NCBI GenBank assembly: GCA_963817955.1 | Contig: CAWFQK010000004.1 | Coordinates: forward strand, 1,120,001 to 1,184,000 | Direction: 5' to 3' | DNA: 64,000 nt | Source: an uncultured Gemmatimonadaceae bacterium | GTDB taxonomy: Bacteria > Gemmatimonadota > Gemmatimonadetes > Gemmatimonadales > Gemmatimonadaceae | Shown here: piece after piece, positions 11,129-63,097 of the stretch | Numbering within the stretch: the first letter of the stretch is position 1 | Layout: each line of letters opens with the position of its first letter | Translations under genes and position numbers: made by a program | The notes under the pieces: model-generated | Databases searched by the model: none | What the model was told of the DNA's origin: nothing | What the model saw: only the letters and a program-made list of their open reading frames with translations

Positions 11129-13678
11129 GTGTCCAACCCTTCCTCCACGTTGTTCACGTCCCCCGCCATCAGGGTGCTCGCGGTGCTTGGTCCCGCGGCG
11201 CTCATGCTCATGGTTGGCGCCATGGGTGCCACGACGTACGGTACGCTCCAAGCGCATAGCAGGCAGGTCGCGCAAACGCGCGACGTCATCGACCGAGGGA
11301 GGAGCGTTCTCGTCGATCTCCTCGACGCGGAGACGGGCGAGCGGGGATTCCTCATCACAGACGACACGCAATACCTCGAGCCGTATCAGCGCGGCACGGT
11401 GGCCTTGCGCGCCGACACGGCGGCGTTGCGTGCGCTGACGCGCGACGATGCTACCCAGCAGCGGCTGCTCGACAGGCTCACGGAGGTCGCCGCGGAGCGC
11501 GTCGCGCTGCTCGACACCGTCAAGACACGACGGCAGACGGACGGGCCAGCGGTCGCGCTGAAAGTGTTCCGCCAGAGTCGAGGCAAGGCACTGATGGACA
11601 GTGCACGCGTCATTATCGCGCGCATTCAGGACGAGGAGGGACGTCTGCTCGCCGCGCGTGAGGCAGCGGAGAGCCGCGCCGCGAATCGTCTCATCTTCGC
11701 GCTCGTGGCCGGCGCGGTGTTGGCGGCCCTATTCGCGTTTCTCATGAACGCGCTGCTCCACCGCAAGGCCGAGCGGATCGCCGCAAGCGAGCGCCTGACT
11801 TCGGAGCAGAACGAGCTGCTGCAGGAACAGACGCTCGAGCTGGAGTTGACCAACGAACAGCTTCATGATCAGCAGGCCGAGCTCGAGATGCAGACCGAGG
11901 AGTTGCAGGCCACCGCTGCGTACCTGGAGGAACGGACCGAGGCGCTCACGGAGAGCGAGGCGCGTTTCCGCGCCGTGTTCGAGCGATCGCGCGTCGGCAT
12001 GGCGCGCGTCTCATTCTCCGGAGCGCGGTGGCTCGAGGTGAACGACGCCTTCCGAGAGATGCTCGGATACACCCAGGACGAGTTCCTCGCTACTCCATGG
12101 CCCGAGATCACCCACCCGGACGACGTGGACTCGGATCTCATACCGTTCGGTCGTATGGCGGTGGGCGACCTCGAGTGGTATGCAGTCGAAAAACGCTTCA
12201 TCCATAAGTTCGGCCACCATGTGTGGGCGCGGCTCACTCTCTCGCTGGTGCGCGACTCGGCCGGGCGTCCGGACTATGAGATTGCCGTCATCGAGGATGT
12301 CAGCCGACAGCACGCGGCCGCGGCAGAGCGGGAGAGGTTGCTCGCCGCCGAGGAGCTGGCCCGCAGCCGAGCCGAGACGCTGCAGCACATCTCAGCCTCG
12401 CTATCCGCGGCGCGCACACCTGCTGACGTAGCCGCAGCGACCATCAGCGCCGGCATAGTCGCCGCGGACGCTTCGCGTGCGGCGGTCGGACTTCTCGACG
12501 ACGACAACGGGCGCACCGTTGAGCTCCTGGCGCACAGTGGATACACCGAGGCGCAAGTCGCGCGGTTGCTCGACATGCCCATGGGGGGGCTGCTCCCGTT
12601 GGCGGACCTCGTACGAACCCGTGCGGCCGTCCTGATCGGCCGGCATGATGAAACCGTCGTACGCTACCCCGCATTCGCCAAATGGATTGACGCTGCCGGC
12701 TTCCACGGATCCGCGATGTTCCCGCTCTTCGTCGGTCAGGGAGCAGAGGAACGCGTGCTGGGCTACCTCGGCTTCGGTTTTGAACGAGACCGCGAGTTCA
12801 CCGAGAGCGAGGTCGCGTTTCTCGAGACGGTAGCGCGTCTCTGCTCTCAGGCGCTCGACCGCGCGCGTGCGTACAACGCGGCGGAAGCGGCCCGCCACGA
12901 GGCCGAGGCGGCAAATCGGGCAAAATCGCAGTTCCTGGCAACGATGAGCCATGAGTTGCGCACACCGCTCAACGCCATCGCGGGCTACGCTGACCTAATG
13001 GAATTGGAGCTCCGGGGCCCGCTCACCGAATTGCAGCGCGCCGACCTCGCGCGTATCAAAGTCAGCGGGCAGCACTTGTTGAGCCTGATCAACGACGTCC
13101 TGAACTTTGCGAAGATCGAGGCCGGGCGGCTCGAGCTACAGTTCTCGCCCGCATCGGTGAGCGCCCTCGTTGCGGGGATCGATCCGCTCATCGCGCCGCA
13201 GTACGGTGCCCGCGGGCTCGCCTACGCCTTCGAGTGCGCCGACGACGCTGTCGTCTGGGCCGACGCCGAGAAAGTGCAACAGATCCTGCTCAACCTGCTC
13301 ACGAACGCGGGGAAGTTCACGGCCCCGGGAAACACGGTGACGGTCCAGTCCGAGCAGGATGACCATGTCGTGCGAATCCACGTCCGCGACCGCGGCCGCG
13401 GGATTCCCGCGGACAAGCTGGACCGCATCTTTGAGCCGTTCGTGCAAATCGATCGACACCTGACGCAGGCGAGCCAGCAAGGAGTGGGGCTTGGGCTCTC
13501 GATCAGCCGCGAGCTCGCACGGGCAATGGGAGGCGACCTCACTGCCGAGAGCACGCTCGGGGAGGGCTCGACGTTCACCCTGGTGCTCGTACGACACGAC
13601 CCAACGGCCGTCCGCTCTATCGGGAACCCGCTCACCGACGGCGCACAAGCAGCGTCGGTACGCCCGCTCACAGACTGA
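11129..13678 (+). CDS. Sensor histidine kinase CHASE3-PAS-GAF-HisKA-HATPase
   Basis: DAETGERGFLIT..YLEPY (CHASE3), ITHPDD (PAS), MSHELRTPLN, NLLTNAGKFT, GVGLGLSIS. Confidence 0.93.
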   Translation: MSNPSSTLFTSPAIRVLAVLGPAALMLMVGAMGATTYGTLQAHSRQVAQTRDVIDRGRSVLVDLLDAETGERGFLITDDTQYLEPYQRGTVALRADTAALRALTRDDATQQRLLDRLTEVAAERVALLDTVKTRRQTDGPAVALKVFRQSRGKALMDSARVIIARIQDEEGRLLAAREAAESRAANRLIFALVAGAVLAALFAFLMNALLHRKAERIAASERLTSEQNELLQEQTLELELTNEQLHDQQAELEMQTEELQATAAYLEERTEALTESEARFRAVFERSRVGMARVSFSGARWLEVNDAFREMLGYTQDEFLATPWPEITHPDDVDSDLIPFGRMAVGDLEWYAVEKRFIHKFGHHVWARLTLSLVRDSAGRPDYEIAVIEDVSRQHAAAAERERLLAAEELARSRAETLQHISASLSAARTPADVAAATISAGIVAADASRAAVGLLDDDNGRTVELLAHSGYTEAQVARLLDMPMGGLLPLADLVRTRAAVLIGRHDETVVRYPAFAKWIDAAGFHGSAMFPLFVGQGAEERVLGYLGFGFERDREFTESEVAFLETVARLCSQALDRARAYNAAEAARHEAEAANRAKSQFLATMSHELRTPLNAIAGYADLMELELRGPLTELQRADLARIKVSGQHLLSLINDVLNFAKIEAGRLELQFSPASVSALVAGIDPLIAPQYGARGLAYAFECADDAVVWADAEKVQQILLNLLTNAGKFTAPGNTVTVQSEQDDHVVRIHVRDRGRGIPADKLDRIFEPFVQIDRHLTQASQQGVGLGLSISRELARAMGGDLTAESTLGEGSTFTLVLVRHDPTAVRSIGNPLTDGAQAASVRPLTD

Positions 13679-13839
13679 CGGCGCGAACTGCTTACGGCGC
13701 CAACTCCCTGACTGCGCCAACTCCCTGACTGCGCCAACTCCCTGACTGCGCCAACTCCCTAAATACGCGAACTCCCTGACGGCGGCGTACGGCGCGGACT
13801 CCCTAAATACGCGAACTCCCTGACGGCGGCTTACGGCGC
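13677..13839 (+). repeat. 17-bp ACTCCCT array, copy A
   Basis: Head GACGGCGCGAACTGCT, then GACTGCGCCAACTCCCT-type units, tail GACGGCGGCTTACGGCG. Confidence 0.92.
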
Positions 13840-14797: not shown

Positions 14798-14815
14798 TTG
14801 GCGATTAGGGGGATC

Positions 14816-16258
14816 ATGCCGGACGCACCCGCTGAAGAACCAGGACCAGGACCAGAACCAGCCGACACCGTGCAGGCGCGCGACCTGGCGGAATCGTCGC
14901 GTAGCCCCCTCGGGCCATACGAGACTCTGCTGAGTCACACGCTGGCGCTGGTGGCCAATGGGGCAGAATTGCCTCGCGTGCTCGATTCCATTGTACGGGG
15001 CCTGGAGTCGGCGTATCCCGCGGCAGTGTGCAGCATCTCGTTGCTGGCTCGCGGACCGAAGCAGCTCGACAGTGCGCCAGTCCCAGGCCCATCAGATTTC
15101 TATAACGAAGCCCTCGCCCGCACCGAAACCTGCATAGGGTCATGCTGGTCTCAGCCAATCCGCGCCGCATCAGGCCAGACGTCGGGCACGCTCACCGTCA
15201 GGCATCGTGACGAGCGCACGCCCGGCGACGCCGACCTCGCCATCCTCGAACGATCCGCCCACCTCGCCGCCATTGCCGTCGAGCGGAGCATCGACACCGA
15301 TCGACTGCGTGAGAGTGACAGCTTGTTTCGCTTGCTGACCGAGGATACCCGATTCGTGGTCTGGAAGGTGGACCGCGATCTCCGTTTCACCTATATCAGC
15401 CCGGCGGATGAACGGTTGCGCGGCTACACGGCCGGCGAGATGATCGGTCGCTCCGTTCTCGAGATGTTCACCGAAGAAGGCATTGCCGCCCTCACCGAGA
15501 TCATGCACGCGAGGCGGGTGGCCGAACAGCACGGCACTCGGACGGGCAGCTTGACGTTCGAGTGCCAGCATCGCTGCAAGGATGGCAGGCTCCTGTGGGG
15601 AGAGATCTTCTCCACCCCCGTGCGTGACGCACACGGCGCGATCGTCGGCTTCCACGGCATCACTCGGGAAAACACGGAGCGCCGGCACATGGAGGAGCAG
15701 GTACGACAACTGGCCTTCTACGACACGCTCACCAACCTCCCCAATCGTCGTATGCTCGACGATCGCTTGAGCCAGACCATGGCGGCCAGCAAGCGCACTG
15801 GTCGCTGGGGAGCGCTGATGTTTCTCGACCTGGATAATTTCAAATCACTCAATGACACCCAGGGCCATGAGATCGGTGACCTGCTGCTGATCGAAGCAGC
15901 GAATCGACTGCGACGATGCGTGCGCGAGACGGACACCGTCGCACGTATTGGCGGCGATGAGTTCGTCGTGATGCTGAGCGGATTGGATGTGGATCCCGTC
16001 GTATCGAAATCCCAAGCGAAGACTGTGGCGGACAAGATCCGCACCACGCTCTTGGAACCGTACCGGCTGACGACGCAGCGCGAGGCGAACGCCGGCACCG
16101 TCGTTGAACATCACTGCACCGTGAGCATCGGCGTGGCGTTGTTCGCGGGTCATGGAGCCAGCGCGGAGAACATTCTCAAATGGGCTGATATGGCGATGTA
16201 TGGAGCGAAGGAGGAGGGGCGGAATCGGATACGAATTCATGACGGCGCGAACGGCTAA
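14816..16258 (+). CDS. GAF-PAS diguanylate cyclase
   Basis: YDTLTNLPNRR, FLDLDNFKSLND, ARIGGDEF, ADMAMYGAK. Confidence 0.93.
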   Translation: MPDAPAEEPGPGPEPADTVQARDLAESSRSPLGPYETLLSHTLALVANGAELPRVLDSIVRGLESAYPAAVCSISLLARGPKQLDSAPVPGPSDFYNEALARTETCIGSCWSQPIRAASGQTSGTLTVRHRDERTPGDADLAILERSAHLAAIAVERSIDTDRLRESDSLFRLLTEDTRFVVWKVDRDLRFTYISPADERLRGYTAGEMIGRSVLEMFTEEGIAALTEIMHARRVAEQHGTRTGSLTFECQHRCKDGRLLWGEIFSTPVRDAHGAIVGFHGITRENTERRHMEEQVRQLAFYDTLTNLPNRRMLDDRLSQTMAASKRTGRWGALMFLDLDNFKSLNDTQGHEIGDLLLIEAANRLRRCVRETDTVARIGGDEFVVMLSGLDVDPVVSKSQAKTVADKIRTTLLEPYRLTTQREANAGTVVEHHCTVSIGVALFAGHGASAENILKWADMAMYGAKEEGRNRIRIHDGANG

Positions 16259-16415
16259 CGGCGCGGACTCCCTAACGGCGCGGACTCCCTGACGGCGCTG
16301 ACTCCCTAACTACGCTAACTCCCTGACGGCGCTGACTCCCTAACTACGCTAACTCCCTGACGGCGCGGACTCCCTGACGGCGGACTTACGGCGGACTTAC
16401 GGCGGCTTACGGCGC
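16241..16415 (+). repeat. 17-bp ACTCCCT array, copy B
   Basis: Same head, body and tail units as copy A; overlaps last codons of the cyclase. Confidence 0.92.
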
Positions 16416-26412: not shown

Positions 26413-26580
26413 ACCGCCGTCAGCCGCCGTAAACCGCCGTCAGCCGCCGTCAGCCGCCGTCAGGGAGTCAGCGCTGTTAGGGAGTCAGCGCAGTTAGGGA
26501 GTCAGCGCAGTTAGGGAGTCAGCGCAGTTAGGGAGTTGGCGCTGTGAGGGAGTCCGCGCCGTCAGCAGTTCGCGCCGTAA
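26413..26580 (-). repeat. 17-bp ACTCCCT array, copy C (reverse orientation)
   Basis: AGGGAGTCAGCGCAGTT units, head AGCAGTTCGCGCCGT, tail of GCCGCCGTCA decamers. Confidence 0.92.
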
Positions 26581-27059
26581 ACCATCTCATACCACTCCTT
26601 CACCACCCCCCGGTACTCCGCCCACGCCCGAAACCCCTCGCAAGCCCACTCGCGCGCGGCCTCCTCGATCCGATCCCCCTGTCCAATCACGTCTGCAATC
26701 GTTCGAACTCCCACGAAACTCGGCGGCGTCATCCACCGAAACCGCCCCTTCATTTGAACGGCCCGTTGCAACAACGCGGGAGCAGCCTCGGTGGCGAGCC
26801 CCAGCTCGAGCTGTGCGTAGAGACTGATGAGATGCACGGCCACCGACTGAATTGTCTGCGGACCGGGACTCCCGGGATGCTGAACGGCGTAGGCATCGAC
26901 GCAGAGTTGGCGATACTTCACGGCTGCCGAATCGCTCATGAATCTGACGTTCAGCTCACCATTCATCGCCCAGCAACCAGGCGAGGCCGTCATGTAACGA
27001 TGGATGGGGCCTTCGATGCGCGGGACAACCGCGCCGCAGCCGACGCAACGCTCAGTCAG
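26562..27059 (-). CDS. DUF5946 family protein (possible CTG start at 27059; first ATG 26993)
   Basis: CVGCG..GPIHRYMTASPGCW, VDAYAVQHPG, SVAVHLISL. Confidence 0.78.
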   Translation of the reverse strand: MTERCVGCGAVVPRIEGPIHRYMTASPGCWAMNGELNVRFMSDSAAVKYRQLCVDAYAVQHPGSPGPQTIQSVAVHLISLYAQLELGLATEAAPALLQRAVQMKGRFRWMTPPSFVGVRTIADVIGQGDRIEEAAREWACEGFRAWAEYRGVVKEWYEMVYGANC

Positions 27060-27213: not shown

Positions 27214-28314
27214 ATGTCTCGTCCACTCATCCCACCTGTCATGCGCCTATCCACCCTCGCCCTCGTTGCCGGGCTCCTCGCGTCGTCACCCGCCGGTGGC
27301 CAGAGACCCAGCGCCGTACCGGCCTCGCCGTGCACCACGCCAACGACGGTCTGCGAGCGCTGGATAACATTCGGCAGCGGACCGGCGCGATCGATGGTGT
27401 ACTCCACCTATCCGCTCGACGTGCCGAACGCCAGGATCACACGGGCCCTCGTCATGGTCCACGGTGCCGGGCGCAACGCCGACCATTATTTCGAAACGTC
27501 GGCCGCAGCGGGGTTTCTCGCCGGCGCGCTCAACAACACGATCATCATCGCCCCACGCTACATCGCGGGCACCGACAAACCGTCGGCAAATGAAGTCATG
27601 TGGCCCGAGGGCGGCAACTCCTGGCGCGCCGGCGGCATGTCGCCGACCAATCCGTCGATCTCCGCGTTCGACTTCATGGACGAGATCGTGCGGAAGCTCG
27701 CCGACAAGAAGACGTTCCCGAATCTCACGAAGATCGTCGTCGCCGGGCATTCGGCAGGCGGCCAATTCGCCACGCGCTATGAGATGACGAACAAGGTCCA
27801 CGGGACGCCGGGTGTGAGCCTCAGCTACGTCGTCGCCAATCCATCGAGCTACGCCTGGCCCGCCGCCGTCAGACCGCTCCCCACCGGTGACGCCGATCCG
27901 GCGACCGCCGACAAGGAAGCGCTGGGACCGACTGGAGAAAAGGTGCACACGCAGTTCACCTACGGCCCCTTCGACACCACCAAAGCCCGCAACTACAATC
28001 GCTGGCCCGCAGGGCTGGAGAATCGATCCGGGTACACCGCGGGCATGAGCGACGATCAATTGAAGCGGCAGCTCGTCGAACGTCCGACGACGTACCTCCT
28101 CGGTCAGGTGGACGTGCTGCCGCTCGGCGGATTCGATTCGTCACCGACGGCCATGGCCCAGGGCCCGACACGCCGGGCCCGCGGGGAAGCGTTCGTCAAA
28201 TACGTCGATGAGACGCTTGGCGCGAAGCATATTGCAATCATCGTTCCGGAATGTGGGCATAATGATAGGTGTATATTTACTACTAATATTGTATTTCCGA
28301 GTATTTTTCCGTGA
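27214..28314 (+). CDS. Secreted alpha/beta hydrolase
   Basis: Signal peptide, VHGAGRNAD, GHSAGGQ nucleophile elbow, ANPSSY, CGHN. Confidence 0.88.
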   Translation: MSRPLIPPVMRLSTLALVAGLLASSPAGGQRPSAVPASPCTTPTTVCERWITFGSGPARSMVYSTYPLDVPNARITRALVMVHGAGRNADHYFETSAAAGFLAGALNNTIIIAPRYIAGTDKPSANEVMWPEGGNSWRAGGMSPTNPSISAFDFMDEIVRKLADKKTFPNLTKIVVAGHSAGGQFATRYEMTNKVHGTPGVSLSYVVANPSSYAWPAAVRPLPTGDADPATADKEALGPTGEKVHTQFTYGPFDTTKARNYNRWPAGLENRSGYTAGMSDDQLKRQLVERPTTYLLGQVDVLPLGGFDSSPTAMAQGPTRRARGEAFVKYVDETLGAKHIAIIVPECGHNDRCIFTTNIVFPSIFP

Positions 28315-28508
28315 ACGGCGCGAACTGCTGACGGCGCTGACTCCCTGACTGCGCCAACTCCCTGAACGGCGCTGACTCCCTGAACGGCGCCAACTCCCTG
28401 ACGGCGCTAACTCCCTGACGGCGGCTAACGGCGCCAACTCCCTGAACTGCGCGGACTCCCTGACGGCGGCTTACGGCGGCACACGGCGGTTTACGGCGGT
28501 TTACGGCG
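28314..28508 (+). repeat. 17-bp ACTCCCT array, copy D
   Basis: Head ACGGCGCGAACTGCT directly at the stop codon, body units, ACGGCGGTTT tail. Confidence 0.92.
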
Positions 28509-28592
28509 TGCGTCGATGCAGATGACACAGGTGCTCCCTGTAATTGGCCACGTCCGGCGCGAGGCAACTGAGTCAGTATGACCTCGATGTTT

Positions 28593-28824
28593 GCCGTCGT
28601 AAACCGTAAACCGCCGTCAGGGAGTCAGCGCCGTCAGGGAGTCAGCGTCGTAAGCCGCCGTCAGGGAGTAAGCGCCGTCAGGGAGTCAGCGTAGTTAGGG
28701 AGTTGGCGCCGTAAGCCGCCGTCAGGGAGTAAGCGCCGTCAGGGAGTCAGCGTAGTTAGGGAGTTGGCGCCCTCAGGGAGTTAGCGCCGTTCGGGTGTCA
28801 GCGCCCTCAGCAGTTCGCGCCGTC
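28593..28824 (-). repeat. 17-bp ACTCCCT array, copy E, inverted relative to D
   Basis: AGGGAGT units ending in AGCAGTTCGCGCCGTC. Confidence 0.92.
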
Positions 28825-28887
28825 CCCTCCCCTCAAACGGAATTTGCTACTATCTCTCCCCCACCCCCTTTCCCCCATCGGACTCCT

Positions 28888-30984
28888 ATGTCCCGCAAAC
28901 TCCTACTCCTGCTCGCTCTCGCTGCTGCTCTTCCCGGCCCTGCCGCATCGCAGGCCACCCCGAAACTCCCCGACCGAGCGGTCCGTCGCGACATCCCTCT
29001 CACCAACATGATCCGGCGTGCCTTCGCTGCCGGCACCCGCGACTCGACCGGACGTCCAGGCCGCAACTACTGGCAGCTCTGGACGGACTACACCATCAAT
29101 GCCCGTTTCGAACCCACGACGTCCACCGTCACGGGCCATGAAACGACTGTCATCCACAACCAGAGCGATTCCGCGATGCGCACGATCGTCATGCGCCTCG
29201 ACCAGAACATCTTCTCGCCGAACGTCCCGCGCGCCGAGCAAGTCACGGAGATCACCGACGGGATGAAGCTCACGAAACTCACCGTCAACGGGGAAGCCGT
29301 CGATCTCAATCCCCCGCCGGCTGGGCGCGGTGGCCGCGGCGCTGCTCCGCCGGCCGTGCGACTGGCGGCCTCGGGCATCAACACGACGTCCGCTCGCATC
29401 ACGCTCCCGAATCCCATTGCGGCCAAGGGCACGGCGACGATCGAGGCCGAATGGAGCTTCCGCGTGCCGCGCGCCGACAACGTCCGCGGCATTCGCATGG
29501 GGCGGTGGGCCGACACGCTGTATGAGGTTGCGCAATGGTATCCGCGCGTCGCGGTGTTCGACGATTTGCGACAGGGTGGGTGGGACACCGATCCGTACCT
29601 GGGCCCATCCGAGTTCTATAACAATTTCGGGCACTTCGATGTGAAGATCGACGTGCCGGCAGGCTGGATCGTCGGCGCCACGGGCGTTCTCCAGAATCCC
29701 CAGGAAGTGCTCTCGGCCACCGCCCGCGAGCGCCTCTCGCACGTACTGGAATCCGATTCCACTCGCACCATCGTCGGGGCGAACGAGCGTGGGCCTGGCG
29801 TCGCCACCGCGGCGGGCGACCGACTCGTCTGGCACTTCGTCGCCGACACCGCCGGCGACGTCGCGTGGGCAACGTCCAACCAATACGTTTGGGATGCTAC
29901 CCGCGCCACGATTCCGGGCAAGGGACCGATCCCGGTGAACATGTTGTACCTCCCGGGACATGCGACGGCATACGCCAACGGCGGGCCCGTCGCGCGACAC
30001 GCCCTCGAGTTCTACTCGAAACTCTGGATGCCGTATGCCTTCCCCGTGCTCACCATGGTTGACGGGCCAGAAGGCGGAATGGAATACCCCATGTTCATCA
30101 TGTCGAGCGTGGGTGCAGCAGACCACGAGACCGGACACGAGTGGTGGCCAATGATGGTCGGCACCAACGAGACCTGGTACGGCTTCATGGATGAGGGATT
30201 CAACCAGTACATGAACAGCCTGTCGCGATTCGACTCGCAGCACCAGCCGGCGAACCTGGATGGCCCGGGTCAGTCGTACGGACGCATGAGCGGCAACGAA
30301 ACGGAAGCGCCGCTCATGTGGGACGCGAACTACGGCGGCCCCAATTACTCGTTCCAGGCGTACTCCAAGGCGCCGATGATGCTCTCCATGCTCGGCGGCG
30401 TGGTGGGTGACAGCGCCGTGTGGCATGCGATGAGCGACTACGCAAAGGCGTGGCGGTTCAAGCATCCGTCGCCGTGGGACTATGCCTTCTTCATGAGCAA
30501 CGCGCTCAAGGACAAGCAGAAGGAACTTGGCTGGTTCTGGTACTACTGGCTCTTCACCACCGAGTCCGTGGACGGTTCGATCACCGGTATGAAGACTGCC
30601 GGCAACACAACCACCGTCACCGTTCGGCAAGACGGCCAGATGCCCTCGCCTGTGGTGCTCAAGGTGCAGTTCGCCCCGAAAGGTCCGGCGATCAAGCCAA
30701 TGCGCAACAGCAAAATGATCGACAGCGCGACGGCGATCGTCACATGGCCCGTGGACGTCTGGTTCGGCGGGAGCAAGACGTTCAAGGCCGACCTCACCTT
30801 CGGCGCGCGGAAGATCGTGCGCGTGAAGCTCGACCCGGGCTGTCGCTTTCCCGACCGTGACACGGCCGACAACGCATGGCCTCGCGATACCGCAACAGTG
30901 ACTCTCGCGGGCGGCCGCGGCGCTGGTGGCGGCGGTGGCGGCGGTGGCGGCGGCGGTCGTGGTGGACCGGCGTGCACGCCTTGA
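28888..30984 (+). CDS. Secreted M1 family metallo-aminopeptidase
   Basis: GGMEYP, HETGHEW, FMDEG; signal peptide MSRKLLLL. Confidence 0.92.
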   Translation: MSRKLLLLLALAAALPGPAASQATPKLPDRAVRRDIPLTNMIRRAFAAGTRDSTGRPGRNYWQLWTDYTINARFEPTTSTVTGHETTVIHNQSDSAMRTIVMRLDQNIFSPNVPRAEQVTEITDGMKLTKLTVNGEAVDLNPPPAGRGGRGAAPPAVRLAASGINTTSARITLPNPIAAKGTATIEAEWSFRVPRADNVRGIRMGRWADTLYEVAQWYPRVAVFDDLRQGGWDTDPYLGPSEFYNNFGHFDVKIDVPAGWIVGATGVLQNPQEVLSATARERLSHVLESDSTRTIVGANERGPGVATAAGDRLVWHFVADTAGDVAWATSNQYVWDATRATIPGKGPIPVNMLYLPGHATAYANGGPVARHALEFYSKLWMPYAFPVLTMVDGPEGGMEYPMFIMSSVGAADHETGHEWWPMMVGTNETWYGFMDEGFNQYMNSLSRFDSQHQPANLDGPGQSYGRMSGNETEAPLMWDANYGGPNYSFQAYSKAPMMLSMLGGVVGDSAVWHAMSDYAKAWRFKHPSPWDYAFFMSNALKDKQKELGWFWYYWLFTTESVDGSITGMKTAGNTTTVTVRQDGQMPSPVVLKVQFAPKGPAIKPMRNSKMIDSATAIVTWPVDVWFGGSKTFKADLTFGARKIVRVKLDPGCRFPDRDTADNAWPRDTATVTLAGGRGAGGGGGGGGGGGRGGPACTP

Positions 30985-38067: not shown

Positions 38068-38817
38068 CTACTTCTTCAAGACCTTCCCGTCCTCGACCAG
38101 GACCGCATACGCGTAGCCCGAGCCGAAATCTTTGTTCGTGCGAACGATGCCCTTGGCGGTGATGATGTCGCCCTTCGTCGCGCCATCCATCGAGGTCACG
38201 AGGATATCGTTGGTCCCGTCCTTGGCGTCGCCGCTGCCGTCCTGTAGATGGATCCAGTTCTTGCCCATGACGGCTTCGTTGAACTTCACGACCGTACCGC
38301 GGATGGTGACAGACTTTCCAGCGAGGCTCGCCTTCTGGGCCCAAACCTCGCCTACCGTGCGGGCGTCAGCGCCAGTGGCCTTTTCCACCTTGCCCACGAC
38401 GACCGGCGCGGAGGACCCACCCGCGGCAGCATGCGCACCGGCGGCGCCGGTCGCGGCAGTATCCACCGGGGTCAACGTTCCAAAGTAGATCTCGGGGAAC
38501 GTGCGCTTCAGCGACTTGGATTCGAAGTTGGCCATCATCAAGGGGTCGTGAACCGTCACGGTGGTCCCATTCTCGACCTTGGCGGCAGACACCGCGGCCC
38601 AGACTTCGCCCGCGCTCGTCTTGATACGCATGTACGTGTAGCCGGCGGCATCCATGTGCTCCAGAACCGAACCGGTGAGCGGAGTTCCCGTCGCCGCGGC
38701 CGCAGCGGCTGGAGCAGCCGACGCCTGGCCGAGCGGGGTCTTGGCCGCGTCAGAGGACTTGGTCTGGCAGCCAACGACCGCCGTCGCGAGGAAGAGGGAG
38801 GAAAGGGCGCGACGCAT
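38068..38817 (-). CDS. NrfJ-like lipoprotein with OB-fold domains
   Basis: VVGC lipobox; VLEHMDAAGYTYM, MANFESKSLKRTF..IYFG, MGKNWIHLQDGSG, KDFGSGY. Confidence 0.72.
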   Translation of the reverse strand: MRRALSSLFLATAVVGCQTKSSDAAKTPLGQASAAPAAAAAATGTPLTGSVLEHMDAAGYTYMRIKTSAGEVWAAVSAAKVENGTTVTVHDPLMMANFESKSLKRTFPEIYFGTLTPVDTAATGAAGAHAAAGGSSAPVVVGKVEKATGADARTVGEVWAQKASLAGKSVTIRGTVVKFNEAVMGKNWIHLQDGSGDAKDGTNDILVTSMDGATKGDIITAKGIVRTNKDFGSGYAYAVLVEDGKVLKK

Positions 38818-38877
38818 AAAGGGGAGGCTCCTGGAAGGGACTGGGGGAAGGGACTCGAGAAATATATATGAGGGTTT

Positions 38878-39080
38878 GACGGCGCGAACTGCTAACGGCG
38901 CGAACTGCTAACAGCGCTGACTCCCTGACAGCGCTGACTCCCTGACAGCGCTGACTCCCTAACTACGCGGACTCCCTAACAGCGCTGACTCCCTAACTAC
39001 GCGACTCCCTGACTACGCGGACTCCCTGACTACGCGGACTCCCTGACGGCGGCTTTACGGCGGGACTCCCTGACTACGCC
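38878..39080 (+). repeat. 17-bp ACTCCCT array, copy F
   Basis: Two head units GGCGCGAACTGCT, then GACAGCGCTGACTCCCT / GACTACGCGGACTCCCT units. Confidence 0.92.
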
Positions 39081-43657: not shown

Positions 43658-46600
43658 CTACTTGGAATCGATCTTTCTCCCGGCATTCAGATTATCAAAG
43701 TTCATAATCGTATTGAACACCAGCGGGTACGTCCCAATCGTCTCCCCTCTATAAACGGGATTGATCGAGAACAGCACCACGTGCCCCTTCTCCAACGGCG
43801 AATCGACCACCGCCGCCCGCTGCGCGATGTCTCCGCCGCCGTTGAGCAATCCGGAAACCAACAGATCGCTCTGGGTCGAATACCGCAGCGCCACACGCGG
43901 ACGCTGATCCGGCGGAATGATGTTGAGCGGCGACCGCAGCATCTCGTCCGTCACCGGGGCGTACTGCCACGGCTGGACGGTCTGACGCGGCGGCGCCTTG
44001 AAGCGATCCTCGAGCGCCGGCCTGCCCTGCACTTCATCCACGTCGTCCGGGGTGCCACGGCCGGTCTCGCGCGAGCCACCGGCGCCGCCGCGACCACCAC
44101 CACCGCCGCCACCACCCCGCCCACCCTTCGTGGCGCTCACGCTGAAGCTCTCGCCGCCGTCGGTGTACGCGGCAATGCCGTCCGCAACGCCATACACGAT
44201 CGGCGATGCATCATCCACCAGGTGGGTTCTCAGGAATGAACCGGTCACCGTGCCCCGGGCGGCAACGTTGTAGCTCACGCCGTTCGTTAGACCGTATTCG
44301 ATCGCGAACTGGCTCGAGCCCACGGCGCCGATGTACACACCGCCGTTCTTCACGAAACGCTCGATGTTCTCCAAACCCTGCCAGCCGAGTCCGGGACGCA
44401 TGTCGTCGGTCTGAGCCCATGTGCCGATGTTCGGCGTCTCCGGGGTGTTCTTCCACGGAATGGGGTTGCGCCACATCGGCATGCCCTGAATCACCTGCGC
44501 CGGGCTGCCGCCGCCTGGGCCAAAGATGATGACGTCGTACTTGGCGTTCAGATCAGGGACCTTCGCGACGTCTGCCGTGCTCAGGTAGTCGTACGGAATG
44601 CCGTTCGCGTCGAACGCGTAGCGCCACCAGCCTTCGGTCTGGGTGTTCTGCCAGGTGTGCATGATCACAATGCGCGCCGCACGCACGGGATGGGTCTTCA
44701 CGCTCGGCGCCGCCGCTACCGCGGCCACCTTGAGGCCCAGGTCCTTGGCCGCCGCGTCGAGGTCGGACTGCGATATCCCGCGAATAATGAAGGAACCGCG
44801 GTTGTACTTGGTGCCGCCCGCATCGAATGCCTCTTCAGCCGCCTGGATGTCGGCGCCCTTGAGCTTGTAGCGGAGCGTTGCCAGCGCGTTGTCGCCGTTC
44901 GCGTTCACGACGAATGTGCTGCCGCTACCCGTCACGCCGCCGGCCACTTTGACTGGGCCCTTCACCAGCTCCATCGCCGCGGTCAGCACCTTGGGATCGG
45001 TGACGCGCACGGCCTGCACCGCGAACCCTTCGGGGAAGGTCCAGCCAGTGTCGTCGTATGGGCTCTTCTGCGGATCGTTCGGCGCCCAGTACTGGTAGTC
45101 GAGTAACGCGTCCGCGATGCGGCTGAACGGCTGGTCCATTCGTACGATGTAGGTCCCAGCCGGAAACTCCTTGGTGGCGGGACTCGCCGCACGGGGCTCG
45201 GCCGGCGCACCGGCTTGTTCGGCTGGGGCTGCACCTCGCCCGCCACGACCGCCACGGCCGCCGGCGGCCACGACCTTCACCGGCATGTTCACCGTGAATG
45301 GCGCGGTGGCGCGGCTGATCTCGACGCGCTGCTTCTGGAGAATGCGCAGCAGTTCGGCCTGAGAGCCGGGGCGGGGATCGTTGGCCGTGAGGATGTACGC
45401 AGCAGGGCCTTCGGTCTTCGCCTTGGCGATGGAGCGCTTGCTCTTCTCGTAGAAGTTCTCGAGAATGAGTCTCCGGTTGTTGGCGATGTAGTTGAGCGAC
45501 ACGAGCAAGCCGGTCTGCTCGTAATTGTTGTTGTTGCGCAGCGACCAGTTCACGCGCGGTAGCGGCGGGTCCTGCTTGAACCAGCTCCGCTGGGTGTCGT
45601 TGGGGCCGAGGATGCGCTCCTGCGTGTCGGCCGATCCCCCGTTGCCAAATGTCTCGTAGAGACGGCTGATGCCGTTGTGCGTAGCCGCGATGAACATGAG
45701 GTAGCCCGGCGACCAGGTGTCGAAGGTGCCGTGGGCGAACACGCCGGGCATGCCGTAGCGTGTCATCTCCTGCACGTTGTTCCAGCCGATCATCTGCCAC
45801 TCGTTCGTCAGCAGCGGATCGAGCCAGGAGTTGTACGGGCCGTCGCCAATGGTGTTGTCGTACAGATACGCCACCGACTCGTGGAGGTCGTGCAGGAGCT
45901 GCGCGTGCCAGTCCACGAAGGTGTTGAGCACGTTCTCTGTGAGCTTGAGCGTCATGCCCATGGCGTCACGGTTGTTGTCGTGCCGCACGTAGTGGCCCCA
46001 GTAGACCGCGTCCGGCACGGTCAGGCCGGGATGCGCCAGCTTCCACTTGTAGACGTCCACCACGCGATCGCGTCCGTCCACTTCGACGATCGGCGTGATG
46101 AGCGTGATCACATGATCGCGGATGTTCTTGACGTACGGGCTCTCGTCCACCGCCAGGCGATAGGCAAGCTCCATCAACGCCGTAGGCGCGCCGGCTTCGG
46201 TGGAGTGAATGGTGCCCGTGATGTAATAGACGGGCGCCGCGGTGTTCGCGATTTCGCCAGCCAGCTTGTCGTTGAAGCCGATGGTGCGCGGGTCGGCCAG
46301 TTTCCCCAAGGCCGCCTTGTTCGCGTCGAGCTTGGACATGAGCGCTTCGGAGGCGACAGCCACCGCAATGTGCTCGCGACCCTCCTCCGTGGTGCCGATC
46401 GAATACACCCGCACGCGACCGGGGAGCGCTTTGGCGAGCATGCGCATGTACTCGTAGACCTCCTTTGAGTACGGCAGCTTGCCCGGCGCGCCGGCGATAT
46501 CGCCGAGTACGGCAGTGGGCGTCGGCACGCCGGCGCGGGCCGGCATGTAGTCGACGAGCGGTGAGAGGAAGAAGGATTCGGTGGTGTACTCCTTGATCTT

Positions 46601-47404: not shown

Positions 47405-47502
47405 GGACACGAGACACGAGACACGAGACACCGAGACACGAGACACCGAGACACCGAGACACGAGACACCGAGACACCGAGACACCGAGACACCGAGACA
47501 CG
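47405..47502 (+). repeat. GAGACAC / GAGACACC 7-8-mer tract between convergent genes
   Basis: About 13 tandem units; reverse complement of the GTGTCTC family. Confidence 0.92.
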
Positions 47503-61017: not shown

Positions 61018-63097
61018 TCAGTCCGCCACGCCGGCCGGTGCGAGCAGCCGTGTCCCGCGTCTCGTGTCTCGTGTCCCGTGTCTCGTGTCCCGACGGGATG
61101 ACACAGACCGTATTGATGAGTATCGGCCGGATGCATCCACAGTTGAAGTGGGAGCACCGTCGGCGCGCAATTGGAAGGCTCCAATGAGGTTGTGCATGGT
61201 TGCGGCCTGGTCGGACAACGCATGCGCGGCGCTCGCCGATTGGTCGGCATTCGCGGCGACGTTCTGCGTGACGATGTTGACCTGATCGACCGCGGCGTTC
61301 ACCTGGCGAATGCCATCCGCTTGCTGCGCGGTGGCCGCGGCGATTTCGGCGACGACCTCGCCGACTTTGTGTGTCTGCTGGTTGATCGATTCAAGGTGTG
61401 CCAGTACTTCGCTATTTCGGGCGACACCGAACTCGACGCGGGCAGCGGACTCCTCCATCAGCTCCGTCGTGTGCTTGGCCGCGTCGGCGGCGCGCCTCGC
61501 CAACGCGCGGACTTCTTCCGCGACTACGGCAAAGCCCCTTCCGGCCTCGCCGGCGCGCGCTGCTTCGACCGCGGCGTTCAGCGCCAACAGATTCGTCTGG
61601 AACGCGATCTCGTCGATCGTCTTCACGACGGTGGCCGTTCGGTCGGCCGACTGCTGGATCGACAGCATCGCGGCGGTCAGGTCGTTCATGCTCGCCACAC
61701 CGGCCGACGCGCTCTCCCCCGCCTGTTGGGCCATCGTCCGCGCATCCTGCGCGTGCGAGGCCGTTCTGTCGCGTCATGGCCGAGATCTCCTGGAGCGTGG
61801 CGGCAACCTCTTCCAGCGAACTCGCCTGCTGCGTGGCGCCCTCGGAGAGCGAGTGTCCACCGGTGGCAATCTGATCGCTCGCCGCTGAGACCTGTTGCAC
61901 CGACGTGGTGACCTGGATCAAGGTGGTGCCGAGCGCGTCGGCAGTGGCGTTCATCGCGGTCTTGATGTGGGCGTGGTCGCCGCGGTAGTCGCCCTCGATG
62001 CGCGCGCGGAGGTCGCAGGCAGCCCATTTGTCTAGCACGGCGGCTGCTTCGGCCATCGGCGAGACAACCGCATCGAGCGTGTCGTTCATGCCCTGCATCA
62101 GTTCCAGGTAGGCGCCGCTGAAACCCGCCGTCTGACCTCGGGCGGACAACCGTCCCTCGCGTCCGGCCGTGGCCAATGCACGCGCCCTCTCGACGAGCGT
62201 GAAGATCGTGGTGCGCAACTTCTCAAACGCCTGTCCGAGCGAGTCCTGCGATGAGCGCACGACGACGGCCTGTGACAGATCGCCAACGCTGATTCGCGCG
62301 GCCGCCGCGGCAAGCTCGCGCTGCGACGCGATCATGGAATTGAACGACGCGCCGAGGACTGCAACCTCGTCGCGACCGGTGATCACGATAGTCTGATCGA
62401 GGTCGCCCGTCGCCAACGCGTTCGCCGCCTGAGTGAGCCGTCCCAACGGTCGGGAGATCAGTCCGGACACCCAGAAGCCAAGCGCCACCGCGATCCCGAC
62501 GGCCAGAAGACTCGTGACAATCATCATCCAACTGGCTTGTCGGGCGACCGCGGCGTTCAATTCGGCGCTGCTCTTGGCTCGCCGCAAATTGAGAACGACG
62601 AGCTGCTGGAGTGCACTGTCGGCCAGCGCGGCAGGGTTCGCCGGATCCGTGAGCGACCGCATTGCATCGTCGCGGCGTCCGGCGCGCGCCGCTTCCGCCG
62701 CCGCAATGCGATAAGGCTCGGCGCGAGCCTCCATCGCTTGGAACGCCCCGAAGGCTGTGCTGTCTTCGGCGTCGGCCAGGTTCGCACCGTACAAGCCGCT
62801 CACCGAGTCGAACCTCACCTTATACGCTGTAGACTTGGTCAATGCCGCATCGCGTTCGGCTGGCGCATCGGCGAGCACCGCGTCGCGTAACGAGACGCGC
62901 ATGGCTCTGAACGATGATTGCAGGTCGCCGGCCCACGCGACTGGCACGGTGACATGAGAGTACAGCTGGGCACCAGCCTGTTGTACGCGACGAATCTGTG
63001 TGGTCCCGATCGCGCCGACGAGGGCGGCGAGTAGTGCAAGCCCGGTATAACTGCTCCCAAGCTTTGTGCGGATCGGCAAGTTGGCGAACCACTGCAT
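61018..63097 (-). CDS. Methyl-accepting chemotaxis protein (4HB sensor, HAMP, MA) with one frameshift near 61761
   Basis: Two [45 protein letters not shown] in the downstream frame. Confidence 0.88.
61049..61092 (+). repeat. GTGTC(T/C)C heptamer tract inside the MCP C-terminal tail
   Basis: About 6 units; translated as [16 protein letters not shown]. Confidence 0.85.

Follow-up and report, generated by a model that had tools for sequence, protein, structure and literature searches.

A polar C-exclusion zone in host DNA beside hairpin cassettes of a Gemmatimonadaceae genome, tentatively read as a rut-like insulator

Two described systems come close to the feature that is the subject of this report. 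The first is Rho-dependent termination in Escherichia coli. Rho loading (rut) sites are described as unstructured, rich in C and poor in G over at least 70-80 nucleotides (nt). They are scanned for in 78-nt windows, and those predicted in E. coli have a mean C/G ratio of 1.6 (PMC6407284). Rho-dependent 3' ends are reported at protective stem-loops, such as repetitive extragenic palindromic (REP) elements, with C enriched over G downstream (PMC6061677). The second system consists of intervening sequences (IVS) of 23S rRNA that bear an open reading frame (ORF), and of hairpin-flanked gene cassettes in which inverted arms made of short repeats surround a gene for an intervening-sequence protein (IVP; PF05635/TIGR02436), or its remnant, and form a long stem. 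Here we describe DNA of an uncultured soil bacterium of the Gemmatimonadaceae in which arrays of a 17-nt tandem unit form cassettes of this second kind. The stretch analysed (the window) is 64,000 nt long and corresponds to positions 1120001-1184000 of contig C4 in the genome called G000. Host DNA directly outside most of the array heads is strongly depleted of C, on one strand only. This C-exclusion zone is real and, as far as keyword searches of the open-access literature go, no earlier description of a polar C-free zone beside such cassettes was found.

The genome is 4.53 Mb in 9 contigs (C1, C4 and so on are contig labels) and has 64% GC. It contains 20 arrays of the 17-nt family, 10 on C1 and 10 on C4, and six of them (A to F) are in the window. 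Fourteen of the arrays form seven facing pairs whose heads point outward, and the other six are single. The head of an array is its first unit, at the outer end, and the tail is the inner end. The strand that runs 5' to 3' into the head is called the inward strand below, and its complement, which leaves the cassette, is called the outward strand.

Depletion of C was measured on the inward strand in the 60 nt 5' of each of the 20 heads. One head (C4 306447) lay inside its array in these 60-nt counts; its corrected boundary was used for the tail-flank, C/G and folding counts. The mean is 9.2 C, compared with 19.2 +/- 3.4 in all genomic 60-mers. At most 10 C are found at 15 of the 20 heads, where the expected frequency is 0.0057 among all 60-mers (binomial P 3e-30) and 0.0122 among intergenic 60-mers (P 3e-25). 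The other bases average 24.0 G, 13.6 A and 13.2 T per 60 nt. The effect is local, with 9.2, 13.9 and 16.8 C in successive 60-nt bins away from the heads, and it is polar. Flanks on the tail side are normal, with a mean of 18.4 C and 19.1 G, and none of the 20 has 10 C or fewer. Single arrays are as depleted as the others (7 C at B, 5 at C and 6 at F). The skew also occurs in any context, whether this is the sense end of a gene, a divergent 5' region or intergenic DNA. C-poor segments that touch heads (at most 7 C per 60 nt) are 77-121 nt long.

One of these zones is the end of a gene. Positions 27214-28314 encode a 366-amino-acid alpha/beta hydrolase (Abhydrolase_6, E 2e-9) with matches from Gemmatimonadaceae assemblies, and its TGA stop codon directly adjoins the head of array D. 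A preliminary description of this DNA had stated that none of the last 20 sense codons of the hydrolase ends in C, and that GC is about 31% over 64 nt. The first statement can be extended to 23 codons (0/23 over 28243-28311). For the second, the measured value is 31.2% at 28251-28314 (A17 C7 G13 T27). The 7 remaining C of the tail are forced by the codons of His, Thr (twice) and Pro (twice). The same skew had been noticed at other heads, and recounting agrees: there are 6 C in 51 nt at 16190-16240, 6 G on the plus strand at 26581-26640, 14 G against 57 C at 28825-28940, and 10 C against 39 G at 38790-38877. Array A had been named as an exception and it is one. The 60 nt upstream of it (13617-13676) hold 23-24 C, 24 by the recount, and C occupies the third codon position (C3) in 12 of 25 codons. 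The zones and arrays of the window are listed in Table 1.

Table 1. Arrays of the 17-nt family and C-exclusion zones in the window (zones are given on the strand that lacks C).
Feature	Position	Strand	Remark
Array A	13677..13839	+	exception to depletion; three identical units
C-exclusion zone, tail of GGDEF gene (14798-16258), 5' of array B	16165..16240	+	
Array B, single	16241..16414	+	stop codon of GGDEF gene inside head
Array C, single	26414..26578	-	head at 26578
C-exclusion zone, tail of DUF5946 gene (26993-26562, -)	26579..26651	-	
C-exclusion zone, last 23 sense codons and stop of hydrolase gene	28243..28314	+	7 C, all obligate
Array D, left arm	28315..28508	+	head ACGGCGCGAACTGCT, then 17-nt units, then 10-nt tail units
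Centre (loop) of D/E hairpin cassette	28509..28604	.	no IVP gene remnant detected
Array E, right arm, inverted	28605..28823	-	head at 28823
C-exclusion zone (G-poor on +), 5' untranslated region and about 12 codons of downstream + gene, ATG at 28888	28824..28923	-	
C-exclusion zone 5' of array F, upstream region of divergent - gene (38817-38068)	38814..38877	+	
Array F, single, head doubled	38878..39070	+	

Are gene ends of this genome C-poor in general? The end of an M14 gene (43658-43770) had raised this worry, but with 21 C in 113 nt and C3 at 5 of 20 codons it is merely AT-rich and not comparable. No skew is seen at 1210 ordinary gene ends, each followed by gene-free DNA for 120 nt or more. 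A second control used stop-to-stop frames of at least 200 codons, with a third-position GC (GC3) of at least 0.75, as proxies for ORF ends (n=2875). A final 60 nt with no more than 7 C occurs in only seven of these, three of which adjoin 17-mer arrays. If the limit is set at 8 C there are 13, of which five adjoin 17-mer arrays and five others have dispersed repeats within 260 nt. Three of the latter five directly adjoin an array of the type (GACACGR)n, a repeat family discussed below. C-poor segments occur 369 times in the genome, mostly as AT-rich intergenic DNA or other repeats.

Tandem arrays as such do not have these flanks either. The genome is crowded with intergenic arrays: 782 merged loci were found with TRF in 4.5 Mb, in families with periods of 21/42, 7, 13, 20 and 17 nt, such as (GACACGR)n, AGAGAACTGCAAA and GCCTGTCATCCTGAGCGAAG, many of them as inverted pairs. 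Examples in the window are at 425-1826, 47406-47502 and 61048-61092. Among 494 tandem-repeat loci, flanks with 8 or fewer inward C occur only in the 17-mer family (9 flanks) and the (GACACGR)n family (5 flanks), and there are none among the 264 arrays outside five named families. The few outward hits in two C-poor repeat families are extensions of the repeats themselves. The idea that C-poor windows are a general trait of arrays, gene ends or 5' regions was rejected on the basis of these genome-wide controls.

The C-free state is, to judge by comparison with relatives, derived wherever it can be read, and it arose in this lineage. The hydrolase provides the largest comparison. Its C-terminal peptide, PECGHNDRCIFTTNIVFPSIFP, is conserved at 80 of 80 loci in genome_contigs and 80 of 80 in metagenome_contigs. 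Among the last 21 codons, 5-15 (genome_contigs) or 5-18 (metagenome_contigs) of those in the orthologues end in C, versus none in the window, and the last 63 nt hold 14-26 C in the 80 metagenome orthologues versus 7. None of the 160 orthologues has an array downstream. The closest are 86% (genome_contigs) and 85% (metagenome_contigs) identical, and ancestral codons are majority guesses. Two other genes were compared within the genome. GGDEF genes with the motif [AS]D.[AS][LM]Y.[AS]K..G.. (n=6) served as the control for the tail at array B, since only paralogues no more than 46% identical turned up; the array-adjacent copy has C3 at 1 of 22 codons and the five others have 6-11. FtsX-type permeases that end in DP...LR.E* give a similar picture. 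The array-adjacent one (C1:251841-251907) has 10 C in 66 nt and a single C3, versus 19-27 C and 3-12 C3 in 15 others. Outside coding sequence, the 70 nt before the ATG at flank E hold 7 G, versus 13-26 in seven homologues of the same genus (8 of 12 loci were used; four incomplete or weak matches were dropped).

These comparisons bear on two simple explanations. One is chance, or the amino-acid composition of gene ends. Asn, Ile, Phe, Cys and Thr are abundant in the hydrolase tail, which permits a low GC content. However, the same peptide is written with at least twice as many C in the 80 orthologues, and across heads the binomial P is about 1e-25, which leaves this explanation with next to no credit. 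The other is that the cassettes prefer to enter DNA that is already G-rich and C-poor. The 17-mer and (GACACGR)n families are lineage-specific and probably mobile, and the ancestral state of several non-coding flanks is unreadable, as this idea would allow. Against it, all 160 orthologues have a normal hydrolase tail, and the array-adjacent GGDEF and FtsX genes have tails that stand apart from those of their paralogues. Gene ends this poor in C are also almost absent elsewhere, so such targets would have to have existed only where arrays now sit. An insertion-site preference is therefore very improbable. For the coding flanks, both it and chance are effectively excluded.

What kind of change produced the zones? 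The substitution spectrum was taken from the last 25 codons of seven co-oriented genes that end at heads, with array A kept apart. The fraction of C3 is 0.30-0.39 at codons -70 to -31, 0.26 at -30 to -21 and 0.06 at -20 to -1. In five of the seven genes the last ordinary C3 is at codon -22 to -25, which places a step about 65-75 nt from the head. At four-fold degenerate third positions (n=79) the frequencies are C 0.10, G 0.66, T 0.16 and A 0.08, compared with C 0.35, G 0.42, T 0.10 and A 0.13 at ordinary gene ends. Two-fold pyrimidine sites carry T in 25 of 32 cases (baseline 0.30, P 3e-8). Arg is encoded by AGR in 9 of 19 cases (baseline 0.09-0.12, P 1.5e-4) and Leu by TTR in 3 of 7 (baseline 0.15-0.19). 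An HKY-like equilibrium model was fitted to C = 0.10. It predicts T 0.35 and G 0.42 if only C>T is raised, and T 0.14 and G 0.58 if C is disfavoured relative to every other base. The second case fits better by 6.8 log-likelihood units with every kappa tried. Because of this fit, and because T is not in excess of A, the pooled signal is to avoid C, not to turn C into T. The change from CGN to AGR codons likewise needs C>A and not C>T.

The hydrolase tail on its own looks different. Most of its differences from the orthologue majority are C>T changes at two-fold positions: tgc>tgt and aac>aat (twice each), cac>cat, ttc>ttt and atc>att. There are also cgc/cgg>agg, atc>ata and one Ser codon of the type AGY instead of TCN. 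At its two-fold sites the amino acids permit few alternatives. In the FtsX permease some amino acids have changed as well. It has PMRRVM in place of the PARRA(A/S) of its 15 paralogues, and this replacement of conserved Ala by Met or Val has removed the obligate C of Ala codons.

The preliminary description offered, as one possibility, the deamination of exposed single-stranded DNA. In a broader form, the inward strand would be single-stranded repeatedly and lose C, while purifying selection spares obligate C. It might be exposed as a 3' tail when the palindrome is broken or nicked, as the strand displaced by an R-loop behind a polymerase that has stalled at the stem, or as the lagging-strand template of a stalled fork. 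There is something to be said for this. A break within the cassette would leave 3' tails of exactly this polarity on either side, C returns with distance over the three 60-nt bins, and any context is affected. The predominance of C>T in the hydrolase tail and the loss of obligate C from conserved Ala codons in the permease are what a mutational process could leave behind, and array A, with its identical units, may simply be too young to have been altered. Other observations do not fit. T reaches only 0.16 at four-fold sites, where a C>T equilibrium expects 0.35; CGN to AGR requires C>A; and the skew of T over A is absent. In five of seven coding flanks the depletion sets in as a step about 65-75 nt from the head, and resection or R-loop tracts are not known to be so short or so uniform. 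The 264 other tandem arrays lack such flanks. Single arrays, which are unable to form a palindrome, are as depleted as pairs, and at E and F the known transcription runs outward and would expose the opposite strand. Strand-specific mutagenesis is thus rather doubtful.

A comparison with GC skew caused by deamination asymmetry leads to a similar assessment. In both, G exceeds C on one strand with a polarity, and the sign flips across the cassette as it does at a replication terminus. However, the skew of the zone is about 0.45 (24.0 G and 9.2 C per 60 nt) and does not extend beyond about 100 nt. T is not skewed over A, four-fold positions shift towards G and not T, and both flanks are affected whatever the direction of replication. 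In sum, a footprint that is local, oriented, linked to heads and weaker with distance was described correctly, whereas deamination as its sole cause is not supported by the four-fold, Arg and T/A evidence or by the step-like onset. The alternative wording of a selective footprint fits better, although a process that converts C into any other base is possible. The 160 of 160 orthologues support a state derived in the lineage. Polarizing the substitutions against orthologues had been expected to reveal C loss decaying with distance. The hydrolase changes are indeed derived and mostly C>T, but the profile of the coding flanks is a step, not a smooth decay.

The zone is therefore probably selective rather than deaminative. 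The strength of selection need not be great. At two-fold sites the odds of C to T go from about 2.6:1 to 0.28:1, a shift of roughly nine-fold, and this needs only weak selection per site, of the order of codon bias.

If selection maintains the zones, more than a bias of mutation does, what is it for? The reading that we favour, with a probability of roughly 0.4, is that the zone is a selected, rut-like insulator that acts through composition alone, more than it is a scar of DNA damage. About 65-120 nt of host DNA outside each head would be kept free of C on the inward strand, and hence free of G on the outward strand. A transcript that crosses the cassette and leaves through a head would contain a very stable stem first, and then a stretch of about 70-80 nt that is poor in G, mostly rich in C and almost unstructured, a look-alike of a Rho loading site. 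Rho would end such a transcript just past the cassette in either direction, and the stem would protect the 3' end. The neighbouring gene would in this way, we infer, be insulated from read-through or antisense transcription. At gene ends the signal would be written by synonymous recoding, in which C3 becomes T or G, CGN becomes AGR and CTN becomes TTR, accompanied by a few conservative amino-acid changes.

The predicted properties of outward RNA are consistent with this proposal. In the first 78 nt the median C/G ratio over 20 heads is 3.13. It is at least 1.6 at 16 heads, at least 2 at 14 and at least 3 at 11, ratios that are reached by 4.2%, 0.85% and 0.05% of genomic 78-mers, respectively. 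Each 78-nt stretch has 8-32 YC dimers. The predicted minimum free energy (MFE) has a median of -7.0 kcal/mol, versus -25.7 +/- 5.9 in 600 random genomic 78-mers, and it is -12 kcal/mol or weaker at 16 of the 20 heads versus 0.8% of random sequences. Inward RNA is less affected (median MFE -16.8 kcal/mol). From these shifts in C/G and folding it follows that the largest predicted physical effect of the depletion is on the outward transcript. Depending on the flank, the outward RNA is antisense to coding sequence (B, C and D) or the 5' leader of a gene (E and F). A rho gene is present, as PF07497 (Rho_RNA_bind) matches a 641-amino-acid frame at C2:841513 with E 2.8e-35.

How does this compare with rut sites behind stem-loops, as at REP-associated ends of E. 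coli? In both cases a stable stem is followed on the outward side by a stretch, here of 70-120 nt, that has little G, in most cases much C, and little or no predicted structure. The length matches the 70-80 nt of rut sites, and rho is encoded. There are also differences. The zones lie partly antisense within conserved coding sequence and are made by synonymous recoding, they are mirror-symmetric around a mobile cassette, and their median C/G of 3.1 is far more extreme than the mean of 1.6 in E. coli predictions. The hydrolase flank is G-poor without being C-rich.

Several observations weigh against this reading. The hydrolase flank is the weakest of the rut look-alikes: its outward strand has 16 C and 11 G in 78 nt (C/G 1.45) and is rich in A/U. 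Its tail also loses G (gag>gaa, gtg>gta and acg>act), which a Rho site would not favour. Among four-fold bases other than C, G is not clearly above the renormalised baseline (chi-square P 0.05), so the signal is "no C" and not "more G". In E and F a Rho site would be located in the leader of a real gene and would cost expression. Ordinary gene ends have on average no region of C over G, and ends of the Rho type are not visibly the norm. Array A sits between convergent genes, where read-through should be likeliest, yet it has no zone. The 17-mer and (GACACGR)n families may have different causes. Lastly, an outward promoter was not found in the D/E centre, the sole sigma-70-like match being at the junction.

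That match is at 28288-28315 on the minus strand (TTCACG, 16 nt, TACAAT), with a -35 element that spans the border between hydrolase and array. It would fire outward, antisense to the hydrolase tail; shuffles expect 0.0 +/- 0.2 matches. It was the only one in 28100-29000, where no intrinsic terminator was found either, and it is not evidence of function.

The cassettes themselves point to another possibility. The arrays belong to hairpin cassettes of the type named after the "23S rRNA intervening-sequence protein", an Avd-like four-helix-bundle protein, and represent either both inverted arms of a cassette or one arm alone. The centre of the pair at C4 1616567-1617386 encodes a protein of 121 amino acids that matches PF05635 (23S_rRNA_IVP, E 7.8e-16) and TIGR02436 (four-helix-bundle, E 1.8e-16), and the pair at C1 251915-252403 has a frameshifted remnant of a PF05635 gene in its centre (tblastn E 3e-14). 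No IVP remnant was detected in the other five pair centres or inward of the six single arrays. Five PF05635 genes were found in the genome, and the others lie between inverted arms of other short repeats. The likeness to the 23S rRNA cassettes concerns the arrays and not the zone, and it is incomplete, as the cassettes described here are found between protein genes instead of in rRNA and most copies are gene-less. As RNA, the D/E pair is predicted to form a stem of about 200 bp that starts exactly at the heads (-408 kcal/mol, z -24.6). Rfam has no family at gathering score in 12000-40000 of the window.

Co-oriented genes tend to end at or inside the heads, as at 13677, 16241, 26578 and 28314 in the window and at C1:245862, C1:219760 and C4:1617386. 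In many cases the TGA of the TGACGGCG head serves as their stop codon, or a stop follows a few codons into the head. TGA recurs every 17 nt in the array, so that any frame that enters is closed within three units. Read outward, the 17-nt units are CAGGGAGUCAGCGCCGU, with a GGA motif every 17 nt (for example at 28612-28810, reverse strand). CsrA is encoded in the genome (C7:57485-57637), and outward array RNA might conceivably act as a CsrB-like sponge.

Suppose, then, that the C-free strand itself is functional, as inward RNA or DNA, and serves as a landing site or spacer for the biology of the cassette, unrelated to Rho. Binding of the Avd-like protein, processing of the stem by RNase III, protection of the 3' end of the upstream mRNA and cassette mobility are possible roles. 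The genus offers a test of whether the polarity is tied to the cassette type. Of 30 IVP loci retrieved from it, 27 were analysed (three were too near contig ends), and 14 had an inverted repeat with a score of at least 60, three of them from G000. On the inward strand the arms of these 14 contain G at a fraction of 0.44 and C at 0.24. Their outer flanks have 14.0 C inward versus 23.4 outward, with 10 C or fewer at 6 of 28 flanks. Thus the G-rich, C-poor inward polarity is also found in arms made of unrelated repeats, including other IVP cassettes of G000. The polarity belongs to the cassette type and continues into host DNA, a result that the insulator reading can claim as well. The idea of a functional C-free strand is also in keeping with the hydrolase zone, which is strictly without C but has no C-rich complement, and with the one intact PF05635 gene (E 8e-16) and one frameshifted remnant among the seven pairs. 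PF05635 is described as resembling Avd, the nucleic-acid-handling accessory protein of diversity-generating retroelements (DGRs) (PMC10053308). Several facts speak against the idea. No partner or motif was identified, IVP sequence is present in only two of seven pairs, and inward RNA is just moderately destabilised, whereas outward RNA is nearly structure-free. The left and right flanks are not specifically complementary (z -1.2 to +2.3). A function of the C-free strand in its own right is accordingly unlikely. The notion that the flanks extend the stem was also tried, and it was rejected because a left and a right flank co-fold no better than shuffled sequences do.

The resemblance to Avd brings up a further scenario, in which the cassette directs the rewriting of about 70 nt of host DNA, either as a C-directed counterpart of mutagenic homing or as a mutator that acts in cis on C>N. 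Purifying selection would mask the process at the level of the protein. The machinery would then have left its signature in the step-like tract of 65-75 nt, in the strict polarity relative to the head and in the obligate C lost from conserved Ala codons. DGR variable regions resemble the zones in that the 3' part of a host gene is altered in a nucleotide-specific manner over about 100 nt beside a structured element, with an Avd-related protein in the cassette. They differ in that the base is A and not C and the protein is diversified, whereas here it is conserved, and no template repeat was seen. A DGR as such was rejected: there is no DGR reverse transcriptase, and the sole RVT_1 match is retron-like. 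This retron-like gene, at C4:731911-733164 (L209:1234-2487), matches NF038233 with E 2e-39, which is below the curated cut-off, and adjoins a fragment of an IS256 transposase. Cassette-directed rewriting is improbable.

A second family of arrays has flanks of a related kind. The 128 oriented (GACACGR)n arrays have C falling from 0.32 at -100 to 0.21 beside the array, and 13 of the 128 flanks have 10 C or fewer. At 55 co-oriented gene ends the shift towards G over C is milder: G3 replaces C3 at four-fold degenerate positions only (C 0.27, G 0.54, T 0.07), and two-fold sites are unchanged.

Both families are lineage-specific. The 17-mer head pattern has no match in genome_contigs, and the unit pattern has none in 300 other Gemmatimonadaceae genomes, eight of which are of the same genus and three flagged unpublished; on this absence rests the view that the 17-mer family is confined to the lineage. 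The (GACACGR)n hairpin family is likewise restricted, with 317 matches in G000 (for example at C5:201502, C3:69486 and C1:448152), two in one congener and none in eight others. In a soil metagenome run (X1) there is a 151-nt contig identical to 28220-28370; the run gave no usable polymorphism. Other X1 contigs, over 28314-28378 and 28707-28823, have the same array family joined to other flanks, which suggests that related strains carrying such cassettes coexist. One of these flanks resembles that of the array at C1:214909 in G000, with few differences.

What would the zones mean for the organism and for cassettes of this type? It is established that the zones exist, that they are polar, of defined length and derived, and that they avoid C. 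With 20 natural replicates in one genome and clear controls, the question of their cause is directly testable. If the zones are mutational in origin, a very local, strand-specific process that removes C is tied to a mobile element, and this would be a new kind of targeted mutagenesis. If they are selected, hosts adjust the DNA beside mobile hairpin cassettes nucleotide by nucleotide, even inside conserved coding sequence. The resulting signal would consist of composition only, and its most plausible role would be that of a pad on the antisense strand where Rho loads. Should the insulator reading be true, insulation of the Rho type could be read from sequence in a phylum without experimental transcription data, and it would provide a function-linked handle on the widespread and unexplained IVP/Avd-like cassettes.

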